In this document: in pieces, positions 10,653 through 48,219 of the stretch
How positions within the stretch are numbered: position 1 is the stretch's first letter
Layout of the letters: every line of letters begins with the position of its first letter
Translations under genes and position numbers: made by a program
The notes under the pieces: generated by a model
Databases searched by the model: none
Told to the model about the DNA's origin: nothing
What the model saw: only the letters and a program-made list of their open reading frames with translations
From: Candidatus Woesearchaeota archaeon
GTDB lineage: Archaea; Nanobdellota; Nanobdellia; Woesearchaeales; DSVV01
Direction of reading: 5' to 3'
Assembly: GCA_018303075.1 (NCBI GenBank)
Contig: JAGVYW010000001.1
Coordinates: 7,156-71,155 of the forward strand
DNA length: 64,000 nucleotides

Positions 10653-11873
10653 CTAGAATTCAAATAATTTCTTTTGTTTTTTTAGATTGTCCAGCAAAAT
10701 GCTCTGCTTTAATTGTAAACTGCAATCATAATTAAATCTCTTTTTGATAAATGCTAATGTATAATTTAACATTGTTTGTTTATCTTCGAATTCAATAGGT
10801 TGTGCTGCTACTGCTTTTCTTGTTGCTTCTCTTACAACCCAAACACCTAATGGGGCAATATATTCGTTTGGGTCAACAAAACGTAAAGTGAGTATGCTTG
10901 CTTGTTTTTTTGTTTGCTGCAACTTTTCAAGAATTGCTAATCTAGCAGCGTAATAGCCACCAACTGTTGAAGATGCATATTCTTTTCTTCCATAATAATC
11001 TTCATAGTCTGTTGCAAATGATGTTTTTTCTGAGATAATTGTTTCAAATAATTCATACTGCCATTCGTTTGGAAAGAATAAGATCAGATAATAATTTCCA
11101 AGATGCCCTCCAAAATATGCTTTGTAGCAATCAAGTTGGTTGTAATCTTTTATTTGTTTGATTAATGTTTTTCCAATTGTATCATCTGTTAAAGTTATTG
11201 ACCATCTTGTCGGCACTAATTTTCTTTGTGTTTTTACTCCGAGATTTCCTGTACTCACAATTTTTGTTAGATAATGCTCATCGAATCCAGCGGTGTAAAG
11301 CTCCTGCAATGCAGCTACTGCTTTTACATCTGTGTCAGAAACAATCTTATCAACTTTTGTTGGAACTTTGATATTTTCTGTAATTTGCGCTTTTCTTAAT
11401 TCAATATTACAGCCATGAGGAGCTTCTTCTCTGTTGAGTGTAAGGCTGAAGTTTGGTTTTTTTGATAAATTTATCTCTATATCCACTGGTTTTTGCGAAA
11501 GAGAAAGCTCTTGTGATAGCTCTAAGAATTTGTTGGTAGATGAATTATTAGACGGATTGTTTATTGATTTGATATTTGCTTTAAACTGTGCATTGACTAA
11601 CTGTGTTCTTAAATCAATTATTTTAGGAATTGAATAATTTTCTCTGCTCCAAAGCAAAGGCTCATCGTTTTGTCTGTATTCCTCTGTATTAAGAATGCCA
11701 ACATTTATGTTAGGATAACCAAATCTTCCAACAAAGATGTTAGGAGATGCTCCAAAGTAATCCTGCTTTGCTTTTTTGTTGAATTCCTCCTGTGATTGCA
11801 GCTTTATCTTCTTTGGATCTAATGCAGGAAAATGCAATGTTCTGCCTTTGTCTTTGATGTATGATATGTCCAT
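10653..11873 (-). CDS. conserved archaeal protein, possibly Nre-family (DNA-repair-associated)
   Basis: The start was chosen at MDISYIKDKG; the upstream ATG of the 489-aa frame would overlap the divergent DHH gene. The Nre assignment rests on recollection of the family (motif PNIFVGRFGYPNINVG) and is tentative. Confidence 0.35.
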   Translation of the reverse strand: MDISYIKDKGRTLHFPALDPKKIKLQSQEEFNKKAKQDYFGASPNIFVGRFGYPNINVGILNTEEYRQNDEPLLWSRENYSIPKIIDLRTQLVNAQFKANIKSINNPSNNSSTNKFLELSQELSLSQKPVDIEINLSKKPNFSLTLNREEAPHGCNIELRKAQITENIKVPTKVDKIVSDTDVKAVAALQELYTAGFDEHYLTKIVSTGNLGVKTQRKLVPTRWSITLTDDTIGKTLIKQIKDYNQLDCYKAYFGGHLGNYYLILFFPNEWQYELFETIISEKTSFATDYEDYYGRKEYASSTVGGYYAARLAILEKLQQTKKQASILTLRFVDPNEYIAPLGVWVVREATRKAVAAQPIEFEDKQTMLNYTLAFIKKRFNYDCSLQLKQSILLDNLKKQKKLFEF

Positions 11874-38765: not shown

Positions 38766-41300
38766 TCAAATATTAGTAATATCACAAAGATCAAATAATT
38801 CTCTCTTAAATCGTTCAATTGTTTTCGCTGCATGTTCTGGTTGAGTTCTTAGAATAGAGCACGTTTTTGCAATTACATCACCCACATATTCTTCAGTTGA
38901 AGTAAGTTTTGTCATACTATATTCTATTTTCTCTCCTTTTTCATCCATCTTTTTTGCTTTTTTCCATTTATCAAATAATTCCTGCGTTCTTGCTGGAATT
39001 TGCTGCACTTCACATTGCAAGAGTTTTGCTATAACATCTGCAGCTTTACTCTCGTCACTTTCTTCTTGAACTGCAGCATTTCCTGCTGTAAATGTTATTC
39101 GCACAATTCCATCCTGTATCTTTGCAGTTTTGATTATCTTAATCTTATCAACTTCTTGAGTATTGTCCAGATGTGTTCCACCGCAGCATTCAACATCTGT
39201 ATTAATAATATTCACAATTCTCAGTTCTTTTCCAGGCACAACTCCTCCTTGATAAATATTCAAACCAAACAATTTTTCAGCTTCATCACGAGGATAGAAT
39301 TTTTTAACTATTGGAATCCTTGCTTCAATTATCCTATTTGCTTCTTGCTCTATCTTTCTAACCTCATCTTCAGTAAGGTTTGAAAAATGGGTTATATCAA
39401 TATGTGCTTTTTCCAATGTTTTCTTTGCTCCAGCTTGATTGATATGGTTTCCTAAGATAGTTCGTGCAGCTGCATTTGTGATATGCGTAGCTGTATGATG
39501 TTGAGCAAGCTGCATTCTTCTCTTAAAATCAATTTTGCATTCAACAGCTTCTCCTTCTGGAATTTTATGTTCAGCAGTTAATTCATGAACAATAACATGT
39601 TTGTACTTAAACACATTAACTACTGGTTCATTTTGAATAGTTCCGCAGTCATGCAGCTGTCCGCCTGACGTAGGATAGAAATAAGTCTGATCAAGAATTA
39701 TATATCTGCCAATTATCTTTAAAACATGCGCTTTGAACTCTATTTTCTTCCAATCATTAAAATATAATATATTTGTTGCAGGAACATCAGCAATATCAAG
39801 TACTATGTCTACTTTTGTTTCATGTTCCTGCTTTTCTTTGTCATGCTGGCTGGCGACAAGTGCATAAAAATTATCAGGAACTCGAACATTTTTTCCAAGT
39901 TTTTTTGCTTCTTCTGCAATAAGTTCAGGAGCTATTCCATTGCTGTCATATAGTTTAACAAGAACAGCAGGAGTTACCTCTTCTTTAACAATTCTTTGCG
40001 CTATAGCTTTTGATTTATCAACAGTTTGTATATATTTATGTCTTTCAACATCTAATATTTTTTGTACATTTGCAATATTTTCTTTTAATTCTGGAAACAA
40101 TGGCTTCAAATAATCTGCATGCTCCTCTGCAATATCCCTAAGATCAAGATTCCAATTATATTTATCATTGAAGTACAATGCTCTTCTTAAAATTACTCTT
40201 AAATTATATCCTCCACCTACATTGCTTGGCAGTCCACCATCTGCTAATGCAAAAAGCAGAGAACGTGTATGCTCAGCAATTGAAAAAAGAGCTGATAAAG
40301 GAATAACATTTGATTTCAAGAAAGAAACATCAACTTTTAATTGATCTGCAATCTTTTGCCACATCTTCTGAAGATCATCGACTTCATCTGTATTTAGATA
40401 AGAACTAAAAGGTAAGAATTGCTGCATTAAATGCTTGTCGACTTTTATGCCTGTTTGATGAAACAGTTTTTTGCATACTGCAGGGAATGTTGTTTCATAG
40501 CTAGTTGCAGCTGCCTGAGTAAACCAAGCATTTCTCTCATGTCCCATACCCATGTCTAACACATTTAGATTTAATTCTTTTTTTATTCCCTGTTGTGTTA
40601 CTTCATATAACATATAAACTTGATTGCCTAGTTCAAGTCCTCGAGAAAAGAATTCCATACATGGTCCAAAGTTTCCTCCTCCTGTCCATGCATCTTCATG
40701 AAATGTAATCTCTTCATTTGGAAGACCTAAACCTTTGCTCAACCAAGAATGTATATCTGCAAAATATTTTTTCTGATTGAATTCTTTTGGAGGAGTAAAA
40801 GCATGCTGTCCTATCATTACAAAACCAGTATAATGTGCTCCAGTAATCCCAACATTATCAATATCATTAAATCTTAAGCAGAACTGCGGTACAACTAACG
40901 GATTTGCAGGAGGCTTTACTTCTCCTGAAACAACATAAGGCTGAAAATCATAGATGCTTGCTTGTACAAACTCAGTATCTTCTCTCCAACGTGCTATTAC
41001 TGGATAACGTTTTATTGGTGTATAACCCAATTTCTGGAAATGTTTAGCAAATTCCTGCCATACTTCAATGTAATCTAATTTTTTCTTTGCAGGAGGATTT
41101 TCAAAAAATCTGAATCCTCCTGAGCAGCTTGGATCTCCACAATTATGCTGGTCATTGTTAACTGTCCAAAAGAATGTTCCGCATGTTTTACATTGCTTTC
41201 TCAAAAAACCTTGCTCTTGCAATACAGAAATAGCATAATATTTCTCTGGATTCTTGCTTGCGATTGTTTTAAACTCTCTTTTGATTTGTTTAATATCCAT
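38766..41300 (-). CDS. alaS: alanyl-tRNA synthetase (archaeal type)
   Basis: The 844-aa protein has a class II core, an editing domain, and a C-terminal DHHA1-like domain, with an archaeal-type N-terminus. Confidence 0.9.
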   Translation of the reverse strand: MDIKQIKREFKTIASKNPEKYYAISVLQEQGFLRKQCKTCGTFFWTVNNDQHNCGDPSCSGGFRFFENPPAKKKLDYIEVWQEFAKHFQKLGYTPIKRYPVIARWREDTEFVQASIYDFQPYVVSGEVKPPANPLVVPQFCLRFNDIDNVGITGAHYTGFVMIGQHAFTPPKEFNQKKYFADIHSWLSKGLGLPNEEITFHEDAWTGGGNFGPCMEFFSRGLELGNQVYMLYEVTQQGIKKELNLNVLDMGMGHERNAWFTQAAATSYETTFPAVCKKLFHQTGIKVDKHLMQQFLPFSSYLNTDEVDDLQKMWQKIADQLKVDVSFLKSNVIPLSALFSIAEHTRSLLFALADGGLPSNVGGGYNLRVILRRALYFNDKYNWNLDLRDIAEEHADYLKPLFPELKENIANVQKILDVERHKYIQTVDKSKAIAQRIVKEEVTPAVLVKLYDSNGIAPELIAEEAKKLGKNVRVPDNFYALVASQHDKEKQEHETKVDIVLDIADVPATNILYFNDWKKIEFKAHVLKIIGRYIILDQTYFYPTSGGQLHDCGTIQNEPVVNVFKYKHVIVHELTAEHKIPEGEAVECKIDFKRRMQLAQHHTATHITNAAARTILGNHINQAGAKKTLEKAHIDITHFSNLTEDEVRKIEQEANRIIEARIPIVKKFYPRDEAEKLFGLNIYQGGVVPGKELRIVNIINTDVECCGGTHLDNTQEVDKIKIIKTAKIQDGIVRITFTAGNAAVQEESDESKAADVIAKLLQCEVQQIPARTQELFDKWKKAKKMDEKGEKIEYSMTKLTSTEEYVGDVIAKTCSILRTQPEHAAKTIERFKRELFDLCDITNI

Positions 41301-41666
41301 ATAACAAAAGTAAGTTAAGTTTAGGTATATAAAAGTATCTCTGAAGAATTGTTACTGTACAATTTCATAATTAGTACAGAGAACTTTGCAAAATTCTTTG
41401 CAAAGTTCTTCGTAAACATTCTCAATTATACCTGTATCCTGCATAGTAATATAAGGTATATTACATCCAATTTATTAACGTTGATTCTGACTGTGTAATA
41501 TACTGTATAATACGGTGTTTATTAGTTATATACTGTAAGATACATGTAATGACAGACTCGAGAAAAGAAATCATAAAAACAGACAACACTACCTCGCTGT
41601 GATTACTAAACCGAAACCTTTAAAGACTGCCTCAGTTTTACCTATTAAAAGTTATACATTTTACAA

Positions 41667-42527
41667 TTGAGGTCGCTTAAAATGTCACAAATTGTGCAAA
41701 TAAAATCCCTTGTACTCGCAGCAGTTACAGATAAGATTGGCTATGTAAAGGCTCGAAAAGAGGCCGATAAATTAGCTTCAGAACATGGCTTGAGAGTAGC
41801 TGATACGCCGATGGCAATACAAGCTATGGCTAATCATCCTGAAGTTCGTGAAGCAATAAGGCCAGGATGGATAGACACAATCACTGGCGAATATCATGGC
41901 CAACGAGATGGCGATAGTTCTTATGAAACATGGCATTCCGTAGGTTCTTTGGCAACTGCAAAAGGATTGGAAAAAGTATTTTCCAAAGTTGGAGAATATG
42001 CATTTATGCAGATTGCTGATGACGAATGGATTGCTGTCGGAAAAGGCAATTACAACGGTCAGGATGTTGCAAGAATCCATCTTGATGATGTTAAGAAAGG
42101 CAGTGTGCCTGCAGCAGGAACTCCTTATACTGTTTTTATACGATTGGGCAAGGACAAAGCCAACATCAATGACAGAGGTCAATTAACGTATGATACTTTC
42201 ATGAGTGATGACAGAGTGCTTATGATTGCAGGTTCTCCTGATAACAGGGAAGCACTGGCTAAAATGCTCTTTGGCAGAAAAGAATATGGCGGAGAAGGCT
42301 GGAGCAATATTGGAAGCTATCATAGAATAAATGAAGTTGGCTTTGACGCTCAAGCTAAGGGGCGCCTGGTGTACCTCAACAACAATAGTGTTGGCCTCGT
42401 TGGCGACGGCAACATCAACAACCTTTATGGGCGTTTCGTCGTGGTAGGCGCAGTTGCGCGCGAAAAATCAGCTCCTCTGAGCATCGTGCAGCCAACTCTC
42501 GAGCAGACACTGGCAGTTATCAAATAA
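41667..42527 (+). CDS. hypothetical protein encoded by a GC-rich, compositionally atypical ORF (probably foreign)
   Basis: GC content is visibly higher than in the flanks (for example ggcgcctggtgtacctcaac...gtggtaggcgcagttgcgcgcg). No recognisable family was found. The likely start is MSQIVQ at 41682. Confidence 0.4.
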   Translation: MRSLKMSQIVQIKSLVLAAVTDKIGYVKARKEADKLASEHGLRVADTPMAIQAMANHPEVREAIRPGWIDTITGEYHGQRDGDSSYETWHSVGSLATAKGLEKVFSKVGEYAFMQIADDEWIAVGKGNYNGQDVARIHLDDVKKGSVPAAGTPYTVFIRLGKDKANINDRGQLTYDTFMSDDRVLMIAGSPDNREALAKMLFGRKEYGGEGWSNIGSYHRINEVGFDAQAKGRLVYLNNNSVGLVGDGNINNLYGRFVVVGAVAREKSAPLSIVQPTLEQTLAVIK

Positions 42528-43405
42528 TCCAGACCTGAACAAAGAAGGCATGTTAAAAGCCGTATCTCAGCTGTATAAACATTAAATTACCGATATTTTT
42601 TTATATTCTTCTTGTTATTTCTATTTTTGTCCCAGTTGCTTCGTCAACTTTGATGAAGTTATGAAGTAGCTTGGAACTACACGCCATTTCACTATGGCAA
42701 CATCGCTGTTATAAAATACAACCACGACAGCTAACGTCTGAAGTGGTGGTGGCTTTCAGGAAAGTGAAATGGCTACTATAGTGGCGCCTGGTGTACCTCA
42801 ACAACAATAATAATGGCCTCGTGTCATCTTTAAGTTGCTTTGCTCCTTTTCGAGCCATGATTCCGTTACGTATGGAAATCTTGGTTGCTGCAAGAAGGTC
42901 CTCGCTCACAGTATTGGTCAATTGTGATGCTCTCAAATCAAGTGCCCTGATGGCTTGCTCATTGATTGTACTCTTGACTTTGATTCCTGCAACCTGAGGA
43001 TAATTCTTTTTGATGAAGTTCTCTCCAAGCTTTATTCCTTGCTTGAATTTCTTTTTTGAATCGAGAAAGATTGCTGCAAGAAAGAGGTTCTTTGGATGAA
43101 AATAGTCATAGACTCTAATATTATATTCTTTGCTTTAATAACAGATTCTGTAAAAAGAAGATTAATCCTACAATATAAAGGGAAATTTTTATTTCCATCA
43201 TATGAAATAGACAAACATAAGCAATTATTGTGTCTTTATTGCATGTGCTTTAGCATTTCAAGAAAGCGTAATTTGGTCAGATGATAAAAAATTAAAAGAA
43301 CAGCAGAAAATAACTATTCTCAACACAGAAGAGATTATGGATATTATTTTCTAATTCTTTTTTTTAAACAAAAACTTTATATAACACCTCAGCATATATT
43401 TTATC

Positions 43406-43825
43406 ATGGATGAAGCAATAATTGAACAAGAAGTTTCTTTTGAAGAAACATCAGAGATTATACAATATGTAGGTTTAGATCAATTAGATGATAAAGAAAG
43501 AGAAACACTAAACAAATTATCAACAGAATATCACCCTAAAGTAAAGCGTTTATTGCATAACAATACTTCTTTAACAATACATATTAAAAAACTTAGAAAT
43601 AATTCCAAAAACGAAAAAAAGCGGCATAAATATAGCATTACAGTAAAGACAGTATCTCCAACAAAACCATTCCGAGCAGCATCTAATGATTGGAACTTAA
43701 ACACAGCAATACATGATGCATTTATGAATCTAGAAAAAGAATTAGAAAGAGTATACAAGAAAAATGATATTCATAAGAATCATATAAAGTTCTCAACAAG
43801 TAATAAAACTAAAAAGAAGAAATGA
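43406..43825 (+). CDS. hypothetical protein
   Basis: A 139-aa charged protein with no recognised motifs. Confidence 0.3.
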   Translation: MDEAIIEQEVSFEETSEIIQYVGLDQLDDKERETLNKLSTEYHPKVKRLLHNNTSLTIHIKKLRNNSKNEKKRHKYSITVKTVSPTKPFRAASNDWNLNTAIHDAFMNLEKELERVYKKNDIHKNHIKFSTSNKTKKKK

Positions 43826-43834
43826 TAATGAATT

Positions 43835-46183
43835 CTATTTTTCAGAATTGTCTTCTTTGTTATCACTTTCTTCCTTATTACTATCTTCTTGCTTAGGTTC
43901 ATTTTCAGGTTCTCCTTCTTGATCATCTCTTTCCTGATTTTCTGGTTTTTTATCTTCTTCTCTTTCCATTTCTCTGTTATCTCTTTCTCTTCCATCACCA
44001 ATATGTTCTCGATCCTGTTCAAGTTGTTCTATCTCTTTTTGCAATCGTTGTACATCAGTAAAATCTGGAGCTTCTGGACTTGCTTGTTTTGCATCATGGA
44101 GCAACTGTTTTATCTCTTCAGGACTTAAGCTTTCAAAAGAACGGTCACCAATATTGATTTTTCCTTCTTTCTGCATCCTTCTGAGATCCTCCATGAAATT
44201 GAACTGTTGCTGTCCATGCTGTTGCTGACCGTAGTTTTCTCCAATAGGGAATCCTTGTAGCATTGTTGGAATCTCAACTTTTCTTATGACGCCGCCAATA
44301 GCTTCTTCCCTCTTATTTTCATACATCTCTTGATACTTTGCTTGTCCAGTTCCTTCTGTCATCTTTTGCGTGATTATTTCTTTACATGCATCCATTCCAA
44401 TAAATTCGCCATCTTTTATGCATTCTTGGGGAGTTCTTCCTTGACCACCTGGACTTCCACTGCCAAATTCAGGGAAATCACCTTCACCAAATTCTCCTCC
44501 AGAAAATCCTTGACCTTGTCCTTCTCCTTGCTGATATTTATCTTTCATAATTGTTTCACATGCTTCTTGACCTATAAATTCTCCATCCTTCATACATTCT
44601 TGGGGAGTTCTCCCTTGACCTTCACCACCTTCACTACCCATGCCCTGTCCTTGACCTTTAAACTTTTCTTCGCATGCTTCTCGACCAATAAATTTATCAC
44701 CATCAAAACATTCTTTTGGTATTTTTCCTGCATCACGCATTTTTCCAATGCATTCTTTTTCACCAATTGGCTTTCCACCTTCAATGCATTCTTCAGGGAT
44801 ATTTCCTGTTGCCATCATCTTTTCTTCGCATGCTTCCCTGCCTATGAAATCGTCACCATCAAAACATTCTTTTGGTATTTTCCCTGCTTCTTTCATCTTT
44901 TCCAGACATGCGTTTTCTCCAATAGGTCTTCCTTTTTCAACACATTCTTCTGGAATATCACCTGAATCCATTATCTTCTGTTCGCATTCCTCTCGCCCAA
45001 TAAACTTGCCATTTTCCATGCATTGCTTTGGCATTTTCCCAGAATCAACCATTTTCTTGGTGCATTGTTTCTCTCCGATAAACTTGCCATCTGCAACACA
45101 TTCTTCAGGCATTTCACCAGATTCAATCATCTTTTTTGTGCATTGTTTCTCTCCGATAAACTTGCCATCTTTCATACATTCTTCAGGAGGTTCGCCGTGT
45201 TTTTCAATCATTATCTTCTTGCAATCTTCTCTTGTTTTGACACCTGCATCTTTGCATTCTTGTGGTGCAAACTTGTCAAACATCATATCTTCTGACTCAT
45301 CCATAATCTTTCTAAATTCTTCTCGCATAAATTCTGGTAATAGTTCTTCACCTGCATATTCTCCTTCAGAATCAAGCTCTTGGCAGGCTTCTTCGTTTTC
45401 TTCAAACTCACAAAGTATAATCAATTTTTTTTCTTTTTCACAATATGTCTTCATCTTCTGCACAGGAATATCTTGGCATTGACAATTCTGTATATCTTGG
45501 ACGCATGATCTCAATACTTCTACAAATTTATCTGTTGCTTGCCCCTGCATCTTTCTTATATCTGTTTCAATATATTCTTTTAACCAAGCTGGAGCTGTAT
45601 CAGGATTGCATTTTTCTTCTTGCTCCATGAGTGTATAATCGATGCTTGCCAATTGTTCACAGAGGGAGACAATTTTGCCTGCTAATTCTCCTGCAATCTT
45701 ATTTTTTTCTACCTGGCTGGAAAGAGAATCATATAACTCATGGATCTTTTCTTCATCAGGCAATTGTTCTTGCAATTGTTTAAGAATGTCTTGTATCTCT
45801 TTGCTGTCAGCTTCAACCTGTCTTTTTAATTCTGGAGAGATCTCATCTTCAATCAATGCTGAGATATTCTTTGCATTTACTAATGCAACTGTCAAGGCAG
45901 CTGTTTTGTTCTCGGCAGCCATCTGCTGCGCTTCAGCTGCTTTTTCCTTGACAATCTCTAATGCATATTCCACCTTTTCATCTCCATCTTTTGTTGCCAG
46001 TTTTACCTCTTCAACAACCTCATCAATAAAATAAAATGGACTATCTGGAGTAATTCCTGCTTTTGGCGCTTCGATGACAACTTCCTCTTCCTCTACTGCA
46101 GCAGCAAGAATGCCGAGCATAAAAATACTGATTAATGATAGAAATAATAAACTTACTATCTGTCTTACTCTTTTTTTTTGCAT
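43835..46183 (-). CDS. large secreted Cys-rich protein with at least eight tandem ~24-aa repeats (DGKFIGEKQCTKKM..SG.MPEEC)
   Basis: An N-terminal signal peptide precedes an acidic coiled region and then tandem repeats, which are also visible at the DNA level around 44430-45300. The C-terminus is an acidic Glu/Asp/Lys tail. Confidence 0.6.
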   Translation of the reverse strand: MQKKRVRQIVSLLFLSLISIFMLGILAAAVEEEEVVIEAPKAGITPDSPFYFIDEVVEEVKLATKDGDEKVEYALEIVKEKAAEAQQMAAENKTAALTVALVNAKNISALIEDEISPELKRQVEADSKEIQDILKQLQEQLPDEEKIHELYDSLSSQVEKNKIAGELAGKIVSLCEQLASIDYTLMEQEEKCNPDTAPAWLKEYIETDIRKMQGQATDKFVEVLRSCVQDIQNCQCQDIPVQKMKTYCEKEKKLIILCEFEENEEACQELDSEGEYAGEELLPEFMREEFRKIMDESEDMMFDKFAPQECKDAGVKTREDCKKIMIEKHGEPPEECMKDGKFIGEKQCTKKMIESGEMPEECVADGKFIGEKQCTKKMVDSGKMPKQCMENGKFIGREECEQKIMDSGDIPEECVEKGRPIGENACLEKMKEAGKIPKECFDGDDFIGREACEEKMMATGNIPEECIEGGKPIGEKECIGKMRDAGKIPKECFDGDKFIGREACEEKFKGQGQGMGSEGGEGQGRTPQECMKDGEFIGQEACETIMKDKYQQGEGQGQGFSGGEFGEGDFPEFGSGSPGGQGRTPQECIKDGEFIGMDACKEIITQKMTEGTGQAKYQEMYENKREEAIGGVIRKVEIPTMLQGFPIGENYGQQQHGQQQFNFMEDLRRMQKEGKINIGDRSFESLSPEEIKQLLHDAKQASPEAPDFTDVQRLQKEIEQLEQDREHIGDGRERDNREMEREEDKKPENQERDDQEGEPENEPKQEDSNKEESDNKEDNSEK

Positions 46184-46229
46184 AAGAATCCCCTCTTCTT
46201 GGAATTATAACATCTATCTGTTTATAATC

Positions 46230-47429
46230 TTATTCTTTTAGGCTTTGCTCTTTTAATATTGTATCCTCTTTCTTAAGCTTATACTGTTGATACCATGTAT
46301 AGCAATCATGATCGTACATTTTTTCATACCACTTGCATTGCAGAGCAATACATTGATGATTCTCAAGCTTTTCATCCTCTTTACAAATAATCTTTTCGCA
46401 TTGATGGTTCTTAACAATCTCATCAAATTCACATTCAAGTTTCTGACAGCTATGGTTGATTGTAATCTCATCATCCATACAATTCAGACTTTCGCAGGAA
46501 TGATCTTTTATGATCTCATTATCTAAACATTCAAATTTCTGGCAGCTATTATTGTTGCAGATCTCATCATTGCCACATTCATCATCCCCGCAGCATTGAT
46601 ATTTCTTACATTGATGGGATTCAAGAGGATCAATATATTCGCATGTATTGCAATCTAATTTTTGGCAGATGCTGTTTTCACAGATCTCATCAGCCATGCA
46701 TTCATTGTTTTTTTCGCACAATGGAAGTTCACTGCATTCTTTAGCAATTGAAAATCCTGATTTTTCACATTGGTAGTAGACCATAAATTCCTTGATCTTT
46801 TTGTCAGTATCCCATTTTAATGTAAATCTATTGCCATCATTCTTTCGTTTCATTGTGATTGTGAAATTTTCAAATCCTTCGCTTGTAACAACAGGAGTGT
46901 GCCGTATCACTCTATTTGTATCTAGCTTTGCATTGTAATTCAGCGAATAAGGATTAGCAAAACGGAACTCTTTATTTTTGCTGATCGAAAGGTCATTGAT
47001 AAGAAATTTGCCTACAAATGTGTCATTTCTCATATAACAGGATTCAACAAATGATTGATTCAGCATTCTGCAGCTAAAACTAAATATTGGGCATTTGGCA
47101 GTATACCTTTTCTTTCCAATCTTGATGTAATATGAGGTTGGTTCACCTGCAACAAAGATGCCATCTTGTGATTCATATGTATAATAGGTTACTTTTTTCT
47201 TACCTTCTGTTTTCTCTCTGCTACTCCATGCTCCTTTGACAGGAAAATAATTATCTTCTGCTTTAACTAGCCTAGCTGTAACATCATTTCGTATCAATGA
47301 ATCATCAATCTTCAGCGAGCCATCGTCCTTGCATTCGATTTTTGTTGCTGAAACAAATGAGAGGGAAAGAAGGCTGCAAAAGACTAACACCAAAATGATT
47401 CTATTAGAACGTCTGTTCAATGATGCCAT
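46230..47429 (-). CDS. secreted protein with C-terminal Cys-rich repeats (C.x.EI...H.C..L.C modules)
   Basis: A signal peptide is followed by a beta-rich domain and then about seven short Cys repeats (CQKLDC, CQKFEC, CESLNC, CQKLEC...). Confidence 0.55.
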   Translation of the reverse strand: MASLNRRSNRIILVLVFCSLLSLSFVSATKIECKDDGSLKIDDSLIRNDVTARLVKAEDNYFPVKGAWSSREKTEGKKKVTYYTYESQDGIFVAGEPTSYYIKIGKKRYTAKCPIFSFSCRMLNQSFVESCYMRNDTFVGKFLINDLSISKNKEFRFANPYSLNYNAKLDTNRVIRHTPVVTSEGFENFTITMKRKNDGNRFTLKWDTDKKIKEFMVYYQCEKSGFSIAKECSELPLCEKNNECMADEICENSICQKLDCNTCEYIDPLESHQCKKYQCCGDDECGNDEICNNNSCQKFECLDNEIIKDHSCESLNCMDDEITINHSCQKLECEFDEIVKNHQCEKIICKEDEKLENHQCIALQCKWYEKMYDHDCYTWYQQYKLKKEDTILKEQSLKE

Positions 47430-47465
47430 TTTCTTGTTTTTATGTGGTTAAGGAATATAAATGTT

Positions 47466-47492
47466 TAGTATTTGCTTGTTCACTTCGTTCAT
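47466..47492. repeat. 26-nt repeat, copy 2 (just upstream of the TATA-like box of the minus-strand gene that starts at 47429)
   Basis: One mismatch relative to 38736-38762. On the minus strand it reads TGAACgaagTGAACaagcaaatacta, directly upstream of aaacatttatatt (BRE/TATA-like), about 30 nt before the ATG. Confidence 0.5.
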
Positions 47493-47694
47493 ACATGATA
47501 AAGATATTGATTATATTATGAATTCTCTGCAATTGAAAGTAAAAGCAAGATTAGAAAAGAGAATTATAGATGGTTATAAAGGAATCAATCTAAGCCTTGT
47601 AGAACCATTTGTAGTTGATGCCTTAAAAGAACTAAAAGTGATTTAGTTTCTAGTAATCAAAAATCATATAAACACAAACAATTCTAAATATGGA

Positions 47695-48219
47695 ATGCCA
47701 ACAAAAAAAGCATCTATCCATATCATTCTTACAGGTGGAACAATTGATTCGTATTGGAATGGCACCATTGATACTGCTACGCCATTAAAAGAATCTTCTA
47801 TTCCTCTATTTATCTAATCGTTAAAACTCTATGATAAGGTAATGTTCACAACTATTTGTATGAAAGACAGTAGACAATTAGTACAATCTGACAGAAAAAA
47901 GATTTTGATTGCAACTGAACAAAGTCCATGCAAAAAGATAATTATTACGCATGGAACATATACAATACCCGATACAGCTAAGTTTCTGCAGACTAATTTA
48001 CAGCGAAAAGACCAAACAATTATCTTGACAGGTTCAATGATTCCATTAACTGGATTTTCTCCATCAGATGCTCCTTTTAATTTAGGTTTTTCATTTGCAA
48101 AACTGCCAGAATTATCTGCTGGAGTTTACATCTGCATGAACGGAAGAATCTTCACAGCAGATGAAACTATTAAGCTCTTATTTGAAGGAAGGTTTGCGTC
48201 TGTGTTTGGGGAAAAGTGA
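47695..48219 (+). pseudogene. L-asparaginase N-terminal-domain gene carrying an in-frame TAA stop (codon 41)
   Basis: Asparaginase motifs occur in order and with correct spacing: ILTGGTIDS, IIITHGTYT (the HGTDT equivalent), and ILTGSMIPLTGFSPSDAPFNLGFSFA. A single TAA at 47815-47817 interrupts an otherwise continuous frame. No C-terminal asparaginase domain is present. Confidence 0.5.
48127..48219 (+). repeat. ~90-bp direct repeat, left copy (3' end of the asparaginase-like gene)
   Basis: About 90% identical to 48933-49025. The two copies flank the MNT-HEPN cassette. Confidence 0.7.

Follow-up and report, generated by a model that had tools for sequence, protein, structure and literature searches.

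A probable fossil of a diversity-generating retroelement that keeps its AvpA-like target gene in a Woesearchaeota genome

What is the GC-rich island that follows alaS in the genome of a Candidatus Woesearchaeota archaeon, and how did it come to lie there? The island is in a 64,000-nucleotide stretch of contig JAGVYW010000001.1 (hereafter the window). An initial annotation, made from the letters alone, described an open reading frame (ORF) of foreign composition, a direct repeat and palindromes, and suggested the remnant of a virus, plasmid or mobile element, or a laterally acquired gene. We consider it highly probable that window positions 41400-43092 are a fossil cassette of a diversity-generating retroelement (DGR), probably brought by a head-tail archaeal virus, which then lost parts through several deletions and is now frozen. 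Two parts are kept at the locus, an AvpA-like variable-protein gene that is still open and an intact RT-16 RNA, and the composition of the segment is foreign. The features on which this reading turns are the following.

41682-42527, plus strand: AvpA-like DGR variable-protein gene, 281 aa; the mechanical start is a TTG at 41667
42358-42445, plus strand: variable repeat (VR), encoding L-NNNSV-GL-V-G-DGN-I-NNLY-GRFV; its first 43 nt are the repeat copy of the initial annotation
42630-42781, plus strand: RT-16 RNA (Rfam RF03019), full length, ending 1-2 nt before the template repeat
42783-42822, plus strand: truncated template repeat (TR), the first 40 of ~87-90 nt, ...CTC AAC AAC AAT AAT AAT GGC CTC G

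The direct repeat identifies the system. Its copies are at 42358-42400 and 42780-42822, a slight correction to the coordinates first given, with a core (42361-42400 and 42783-42822) that is identical at 37 of 40 positions. A search with a 26-nt core returned exactly the two repeat sites, against 0 matches expected in 100 shuffles. In the ORF's reading frame, the upstream copy runs CTC AAC AAC AAT AGT GTT GGC and the downstream copy CTC AAC AAC AAT AAT AAT GGC. All three mismatches over the 40 nt fall on adenines of the downstream copy and none on another base, and each is the first or second base of an in-frame AAY codon (P = 0.017 from position alone). Because differences confined to adenines of one copy are the hallmark of a DGR, we assign the downstream copy as TR and the copy within the gene as VR. 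Two non-A bases (T, C) that distinguish the window TR from that of an intact relative on contig L007 are found in the window VR and the TR stump alike, and the remainder of the window VR is compatible with earlier mutagenesis at adenines from a TR like that of L007 plus one additional AAY codon. The adenine-type changes together with shared lineage-specific bases indicate that the system worked in this lineage before it decayed.

Among 20 genome loci encoding the protein family, L007, a 15.6-kb contig binned with an Aenigmatarchaeota metagenome-assembled genome (MAG), has the complete cassette. Its reverse transcriptase (RT) gene, on the minus strand, encodes 572 aa with RVT_1 and HTH_40 domains and the motifs LGNLTSQ and YVDD. 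NCBIfam has no DGR-specific RT model and the best match is a group II intron RT, below cut-off, so the DGR assignment of this RT rests on the LGNLTSQ motif and on context. Between the RT and target genes is an ORF of 65 aa (7.3 kDa, isoelectric point 9.7) whose size and charge fit the Avd-like criterion of Paul et al. 2015, and which has no Pfam or NCBIfam match. The target gene is 75% identical to that of the window. All 13 of 13 mismatches between the L007 VR and its 87-nt TR are at TR adenines (P = 5e-8), and the VR-TR spacing is 426 nt, compared with 422 nt in the window. Beyond the TR, on the minus strand, are genes for a 677-aa portal/MuF fusion (Portal_Mu/Phage_portal and MuF) and a large terminase (Terminase_6N); a prohead-protease-like gene is on the far side of the RT. 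As judged from its gene content, L007 would be a head-tail virus or provirus with the DGR inside its morphogenesis module. BLASTN aligns the window to this cassette in three colinear blocks separated by two losses.

Window 41401-41574 = L007 2789-2961, colinear at 90%: first 15 RT codons and the divergent promoter with three 19-nt palindromes
L007 2962-3155, ~194 nt, missing in the window: small ORF
Window 41584-42821 = L007 3156-4396, colinear at 81%: target gene, RT-16 spacer and first 42 nt of the TR
L007 4397-4757, missing in the window: TR 3' half and portal C-terminus
Window 42813-43077 = L007 4758-5023, colinear at 91%: portal aa 490-579

Beyond these blocks, no L007-like sequence was found elsewhere in the 64-kb window.

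The product of the retained gene is a member of a known group of variable proteins. Homologs begin MSQIV and the real start is therefore probably the ATG at 41682. The ORF has 92 homologs at 40-89% identity, and nearly all of those with a name are from Woesearchaeota or Nanoarchaeota MAGs. Searches of the ORF against Pfam, NCBIfam and PHROGs gave nothing usable and none of the 92 homologs has a Pfam domain; to this extent the first impression that the protein had no recognizable family holds. A profile of the family against the Protein Data Bank (PDB), though, matches AvpA (5IOO; E = 8.3e-5) over the VR and C-terminus, and an AlphaFold model of the ORF product (pLDDT, the predicted local distance difference test, of 87.5) retrieves 5ioo_A in Foldseek (E = 1.2e-9, probability 1.00, TM score 0.77) with no other PDB match below E = 0.3. 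AvpA is a crystallized Nanoarchaeota DGR variable protein (Handa et al. 2016, PMC5006420). Together, the profile match and predicted-fold match indicate that the ORF encodes an AvpA-like variable protein with a C-type-lectin fold; a lead toward viral capsid and structural proteins did not hold for the ORF itself. The homolog alignment is conserved except for one block, L-x5-GL-x-G-x3-I-x3-GRFV, which coincides with the repeat. At the RFxGV motif most homologs have GRFVGV, compared with GRFVVV in the window. The dN/dS ratio is 0.08-0.38 outside the VR; within it, the rate of nonsynonymous differences (pN) far exceeds that of synonymous differences (pS). The gene is under purifying selection. 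An extra A at 42519-42530, present in all other assemblies as well, shifts the frame and removes the last ~20 residues, and the conserved tail NNPDLNKEGMLKAVSQLYK is readable in the +1 frame at 42523-42579. Otherwise the ORF is intact.

The RNA between gene and TR is equally recognizable. It scores 84.4 bits with the RT-16 covariance model, relative to a gathering score of 50, and covers model positions 1-158 of 158. The hairpin arms seen in the initial annotation, GCCATTTCACT at 42683 and AGTGAAATGGC at 42763, are real and are paired in the Rfam RT-16 alignment as one of its long-range stems. Metagenomes scanned with a core pattern of RT-16 yielded 43 loci, 22 of them relatives. RT-16 is above threshold in 17 of 20 relatives scanned, and all 19 relatives inspected have an AAY-rich TR, with the end GTCGGAATAG (GGAATAG), no more than a few bases after RT-16, and in 6 of the 19 an RT ORF that starts 106-146 nt beyond the TR. 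On these counts, RT-16 is the constant 5' neighbor of the TR in this DGR lineage. Weinberg et al. 2017 (PMC5737381) described RT-1 to RT-19 as motifs near RT genes and tied only RT-10 to a DGR. The full-length, above-gathering matches in the window and its relatives are of the published RT-16 motif, but that motif was reported as "near RT genes" with no role assigned, whereas here it is always directly 5' of a DGR TR and, in the window, persists without any RT gene.

Relatives also have a conserved tail after the TR, GGAATAGTCAAGCT...GCTGGGACA and then a T-run (L007 4442-4470, with equivalents in L028, L032, L037, L056 and L058), which can also be written GGAATAG...GCUGGGAC. At window 42628, the 5' edge of RT-16, lies TGTCCCAG, to which the element GCTGGGACA is complementary; this pairing could form a closing helix or a terminator, and no clear covariation was seen. 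Pairing of TGTCCCAG, 5' of RT-16, with a conserved GCTGGGAC 3' of the TR was considered and dropped, as there was no clear covariation.

If the locus once had the whole cassette, what has become of the rest? The broken parts are the following.

41381-41408, no strand: perfect 12-nt inverted repeat GAACTTTGCAAA-ATTC-TTTGCAAAGTTC, at the RT truncation junction
41400-41444, minus strand: 5' remnant of the DGR RT gene, its first 15 codons MQDTGIIENVYEELC, identical to the L007 RT N-terminus
41446-41464, 41495-41513 and 41525-41543, no strand: three 19-nt imperfect palindromes (GTAATATAnnnTATATTAC type) between the RT and target operon
41549-41583, plus strand: what remains of the small basic ORF, whose size and charge are Avd-like: an ATG followed at once by a stop
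42432-42459, plus strand: degenerate recipient elements at the VR 3' end, with an IMH (initiation site for mutagenic homing) of GTCGTGGT instead of GTCGGGGT
42823-43092, minus strand: piece from the interior of a phage-type portal/MuF fusion gene, corresponding to aa 490-579 of the L007 protein (677 aa) at 90% identity

The RT remnant diverges past its 15 codons and reaches a stop after 30 codons, and no YxDD or SQ RT motif was found in six frames of the 64-kb window. Where a DGR has a DGR-clade RT near its VR, the window thus has 15 N-terminal codons only, and since the RT is missing, the locus is a DGR remnant rather than a complete DGR. The right arm of the palindrome at the truncation is RT codons 13-16, the left arm is an inverted duplicate, and homology to L007 begins at 41401; with an arm made of RT codons at the point of truncation, the palindrome looks like a deletion scar. 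A match of this palindrome to mir-19 (21 bits, E = 0.7) is taken as chance. Each 19-nt unit is an imperfect palindrome GTAATATA-N3-TATATTAC, and we infer from the sequence that the three are operator or promoter elements of the divergent region. Both the perfect upstream palindrome and the upstream repeats of the initial annotation (three 19-nt units within 41446-41543) are present, but what had been grouped as internal palindromes is three unrelated things: a long-range stem of RT-16, a deletion-junction scar and operator-like repeats of a divergent promoter. L001/L006 and the variant contig L070 have the small basic ORF intact.

The TR stops at GGCCTCG (42822), its 3' half and IMH* (GGAAT) deleted, and is fused there to the internal portal fragment; the TR end GTCGGAATAG is missing in the window and present in L007, L018, L028, L037 and L066. 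The 270-nt portal fragment is without start and without C-terminus, and its frame extends by accident into the antisense of the TR and RT-16. A minus-strand frame lacking a start codon, given as 160 codons by the initial annotation, does exist, although it is 141 codons long (42712-43134) and the true coding remnant is only 42823-43092; Pfam, NCBIfam and PHROGs gave nothing usable for it. On the recipient side, complete relatives have a VR ending GTCGGGGTAG(G)CGCC-GGA-GGCGC, which is IMH GGGGT plus a GRA-loop hairpin, and a TR ending GGAAT. These elements, defined for nanoarchaea in Paul et al. 2015 (PMC4372165), are intact in L004/L013, L007, L011, L016 and L018. In the window, a 9-nt deletion at the VR 3' end took away one arm and the GGA loop of the GCGCC-GGA-GGCGC hairpin. 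DNA folding 3' of the VR was no better than in shuffles, so the hairpin argument rests on the conserved GCGCC-GGA-GGCGC and not on folding energy. Both sides of the system are broken: the donor (RT, small ORF, TR 3' half and IMH*) and the recipient (IMH and hairpin).

The layout of the intact cassette is observed in L007, and its working is inferred. RT-16 and the TR would be transcribed as one RNA. By analogy with the DGR literature, the RT would copy the TR to cDNA with misincorporation opposite adenines, and, with the IMH (GGGGT) and the GRA-loop hairpin as guides, this cDNA would take the place of the VR at the AvpA-like gene's 3' end, such that the C-type-lectin fold has its binding surface rewritten. 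At the window locus, diversification would have ended and the host would keep one frozen allele of an AvpA-like binding protein.

Could the window gene instead still be an active target, its VR rewritten in trans by an RT and full TR that lie at another genomic site or on an infecting virus? Remote DGR targets are documented (PMC5758913), and relatives show how it might look. The gene occurs at nonsyntenic sites in other genomes in differing states of decay: RT fragments are upstream of it in L008, L012 and L015; the small ORF is kept in L001/L006; L018 (6.9 kb) and L056 (10.9 kb) have a full TR with no RT seen within the available sequence; and L004/L013 has neither TR nor RT. No TR or RT was found within 10 kb of the homologs in L001 and L004, suggesting that the family is often RT-less locally. 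In RT-less L013 (the same locus as L004), the VR (10674-10755) has 11 mismatches at A and 0 at non-A relative to the TR of L007 (4355-4441), which is from a different MAG, and it has zero synonymous difference to the L007 VR (pS 0) despite a dS of 0.71 in the rest of the gene. Adenine-only differences without synonymous divergence leave room for TR/RT units that are shared or act in trans. Contig L068 terminates in a full-length TR, and its sample also yielded a window-type contig. For the window itself, however, the IMH is mutated (GTGGT) and the GRA-loop hairpin is lost, the VR is one codon longer than available full TRs, and five further assemblies of this genome, made from different samples, have an identical VR, from which the element looks frozen. 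We therefore regard continued rewriting of this gene as improbable.

A broader and more tentative idea concerns the family. It is possible, though we doubt it, that chromosomal AvpA-like genes in Woesearchaeota and Nanoarchaeota are captured targets of viral DGRs kept under selection, with trans-acting TR/RT units at separate loci or on infecting viruses rewriting those copies that bear IMH and hairpin. If so, RT-16 would be the 5' scaffold of a DGR lineage, unlike the 3' spacer architecture in Bordetella, and the window copy would be an end state, a frozen allele. Single MAGs have two or three AvpA-like paralogs on separate contigs (L011/L012/L016; L006/L019; L018/L021/L022), and the family appears to be multicopy within genomes. 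Related RT-16/TR units serve two or more tandem targets in L028, L066, L037 and L058; L037 and L058 have as many as five or six paralogs of ~298 aa that begin M(T/N)(R/P)IIPR.LI.HLEW, a target family other than AvpA-like.

The junctions themselves might be artifacts, if host DNA had been misjoined with reads of a co-occurring virus at the RT stump, the small ORF and the TR/portal fusion. Contig ends with alternative continuations do cluster at the remnant junctions, and contigs of other assemblies break or switch at exactly these places. L069 ends at 42807; L068 (1-260) switches to a full-length TR after ~42777; L070 (1-340) diverges after 41574 and carries an intact 65-aa ORF; L072 (1-900) has a 23S rRNA 3' end and 35 RT codons on its left; and L073 (1-800) keeps the portal C-terminus behind a scaffold gap. 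These continuations could reflect either structural variation between strains or cross-overs in the assembly graph with an intact element that co-occurs. Nevertheless, L071, an 88-kb contig from another sample, is colinear without gaps with window 39406-47825 at 99.94%. The TR/portal junction is independently spanned by L072, L074 and L075, and the alaS/RT-stump junction and small-ORF deletion by L068, L069 and L071. In addition, GC is ~32% on both sides of the island. The initial annotation had called for a check on assembly chimerism, and at the level of contigs the window structure is supported by L071, L072, L074, L075, L068 and L069, with the alternative ends falling at its junctions as well. 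A chimera is thus, in our judgment, very improbable, and more so than rewriting in trans. Hardly any credence is left for a repeat made by an integrase as an attachment-site duplication or by plain segmental duplication of the 3' part of the gene: although the repeat is direct, near a foreign island, and was first read as bounding it and as a possible att site, both copies lie inside the island as a DGR's VR and TR, the region of the island showed neither an att site nor an integrase, L007 has the same pair at the same spacing with its adenine-only differences, and RT-16 precedes the downstream copy in every relative checked.

The foreign origin of the segment is visible in its composition. 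GC content of the ORF at 41667-42527 is 44.2%, relative to 32.4% for the 64-kb window, and its GC at third codon positions is 36%, higher than in alaS, polB and neighboring and downstream genes (18-26%). The whole island is at 40.5% and contig L007 at 41%. The island shares no synteny with homologs elsewhere, as the neighbors differ in L001 and L004. Hence the initial annotation was correct about elevated GC, and average composition and syntenic homologs, the two observations it had named as contrary to its idea of lateral acquisition, were not seen. That idea, of a virus remnant or laterally acquired segment, is borne out by the gene order of L007 together with the 270-nt portal piece and by the foreign composition. 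As hallmarks of a provirus, the window has only the 90-aa internal portal fragment; portal and terminase genes are in L007.

Several points weigh against a fossil of viral origin. Three mismatches in a 40-nt TR stump are weak statistics by themselves (P ~0.02), and the case rests on relatives. Viral origin depends on a single virus-like contig, L007, and the 270-nt portal fragment, other family members (L056 and L060) sit among cellular genes, and the target-protein alignment retrieved no relatives from IMG/VR. Consensus assemblies hide low-frequency VR variants, and the TR that ends L068 is full length. An intact RT and TR may be present elsewhere in the genome, outside the 64-kb window. In spite of these points, we favor the fossil cassette with a probable viral source.

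The cassette as reconstructed resembles known systems to different degrees. With the DGRs of Nanoarchaeota and other DPANN archaea and with AvpA (PMC4372165, PMC5006420, 5IOO), it shares an RFxGV motif encoded by the IMH, an IMH of xGGGGT versus an IMH* of xGGAAT, a hairpin with a GRA trinucleotide loop within the gene, a small basic ORF between RT and target, and a TR rich in AAY codons. In contrast, the window copy is without RT, small ORF, TR 3' half, IMH and hairpin, its protein is only ~16% identical to AvpA over the fold, and the intact relative L007 is within the morphogenesis module of a head-tail virus with an RT divergent from the target. With the DGR of Bordetella phage BPP-1 (mtd-avd-TR-brt), it shares adenine-specific transfer from TR to VR, a target with a C-type-lectin fold and C-terminal VR, IMH and IMH*, a hairpin, and carriage by a virus. 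In BPP-1, however, the structured RNA is 3' of the TR (RT-10 motif, Weinberg 2017, PMC5737381), whereas RT-16 here is 5' of it; no Avd homolog was detected here by sequence; and the RT of L007 bears a C-terminal HTH_40 extension. DGRs, AvpA-like proteins and fragmentary DGRs in DPANN archaea, as well as the RT-16 motif, are already published. Paul et al. 2015 (PMC4372165) noted fragmentary DGRs, and Handa et al. 2016 (PMC5006420) listed AvpA-like proteins in Woesearchaeota, some with "no DGR." Modestly new are the adjacency of RT-16 and TR, the viral setting in which an AvpA-like target is seen, and a step-by-step loss of machinery with the protein kept.

Genes next to the remnant are of other kinds. 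A 62-codon ORF at 43096-43284 on the plus strand (MKIVIDSNIIFFALITD...) resembles a PIN-domain toxin's N-terminal third (Pfam PIN_2, E = 0.05, below threshold) and stops early; it is probably a partial gene lying just beyond the DGR remnant. Further along the same strand, a 139-aa protein (43406-43825) matches Ribosomal_S30AE, a hibernation-factor family (E = 9.5e-6). This family is usually bacterial, and its presence in an archaeal genome is unusual. A 782-aa protein on the minus strand (43835-46183) has an N-terminal DUF5667 and internal Cys-rich "GKFIGEKQC..." repeats, with a GC of ~38-40% that is above its surroundings; it is adjoined by a 399-aa Cys-rich protein with no family (46230-47429). 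From their sequences, the two look like secreted or surface proteins of the host.

What had been a vague foreign island can be given a precise annotation in which each listed oddity is a named part of a DGR cassette. RT-16, an orphan Rfam motif, gains a concrete context and can be tested as an RNA scaffold or primer of DPANN retroelements. AvpA-like proteins, hitherto discussed as cellular symbiosis factors, would be tied to a head-tail virus. Across genomes, the loci form a decay series in which the diversifying machinery appears to be lost and the diversified protein kept.

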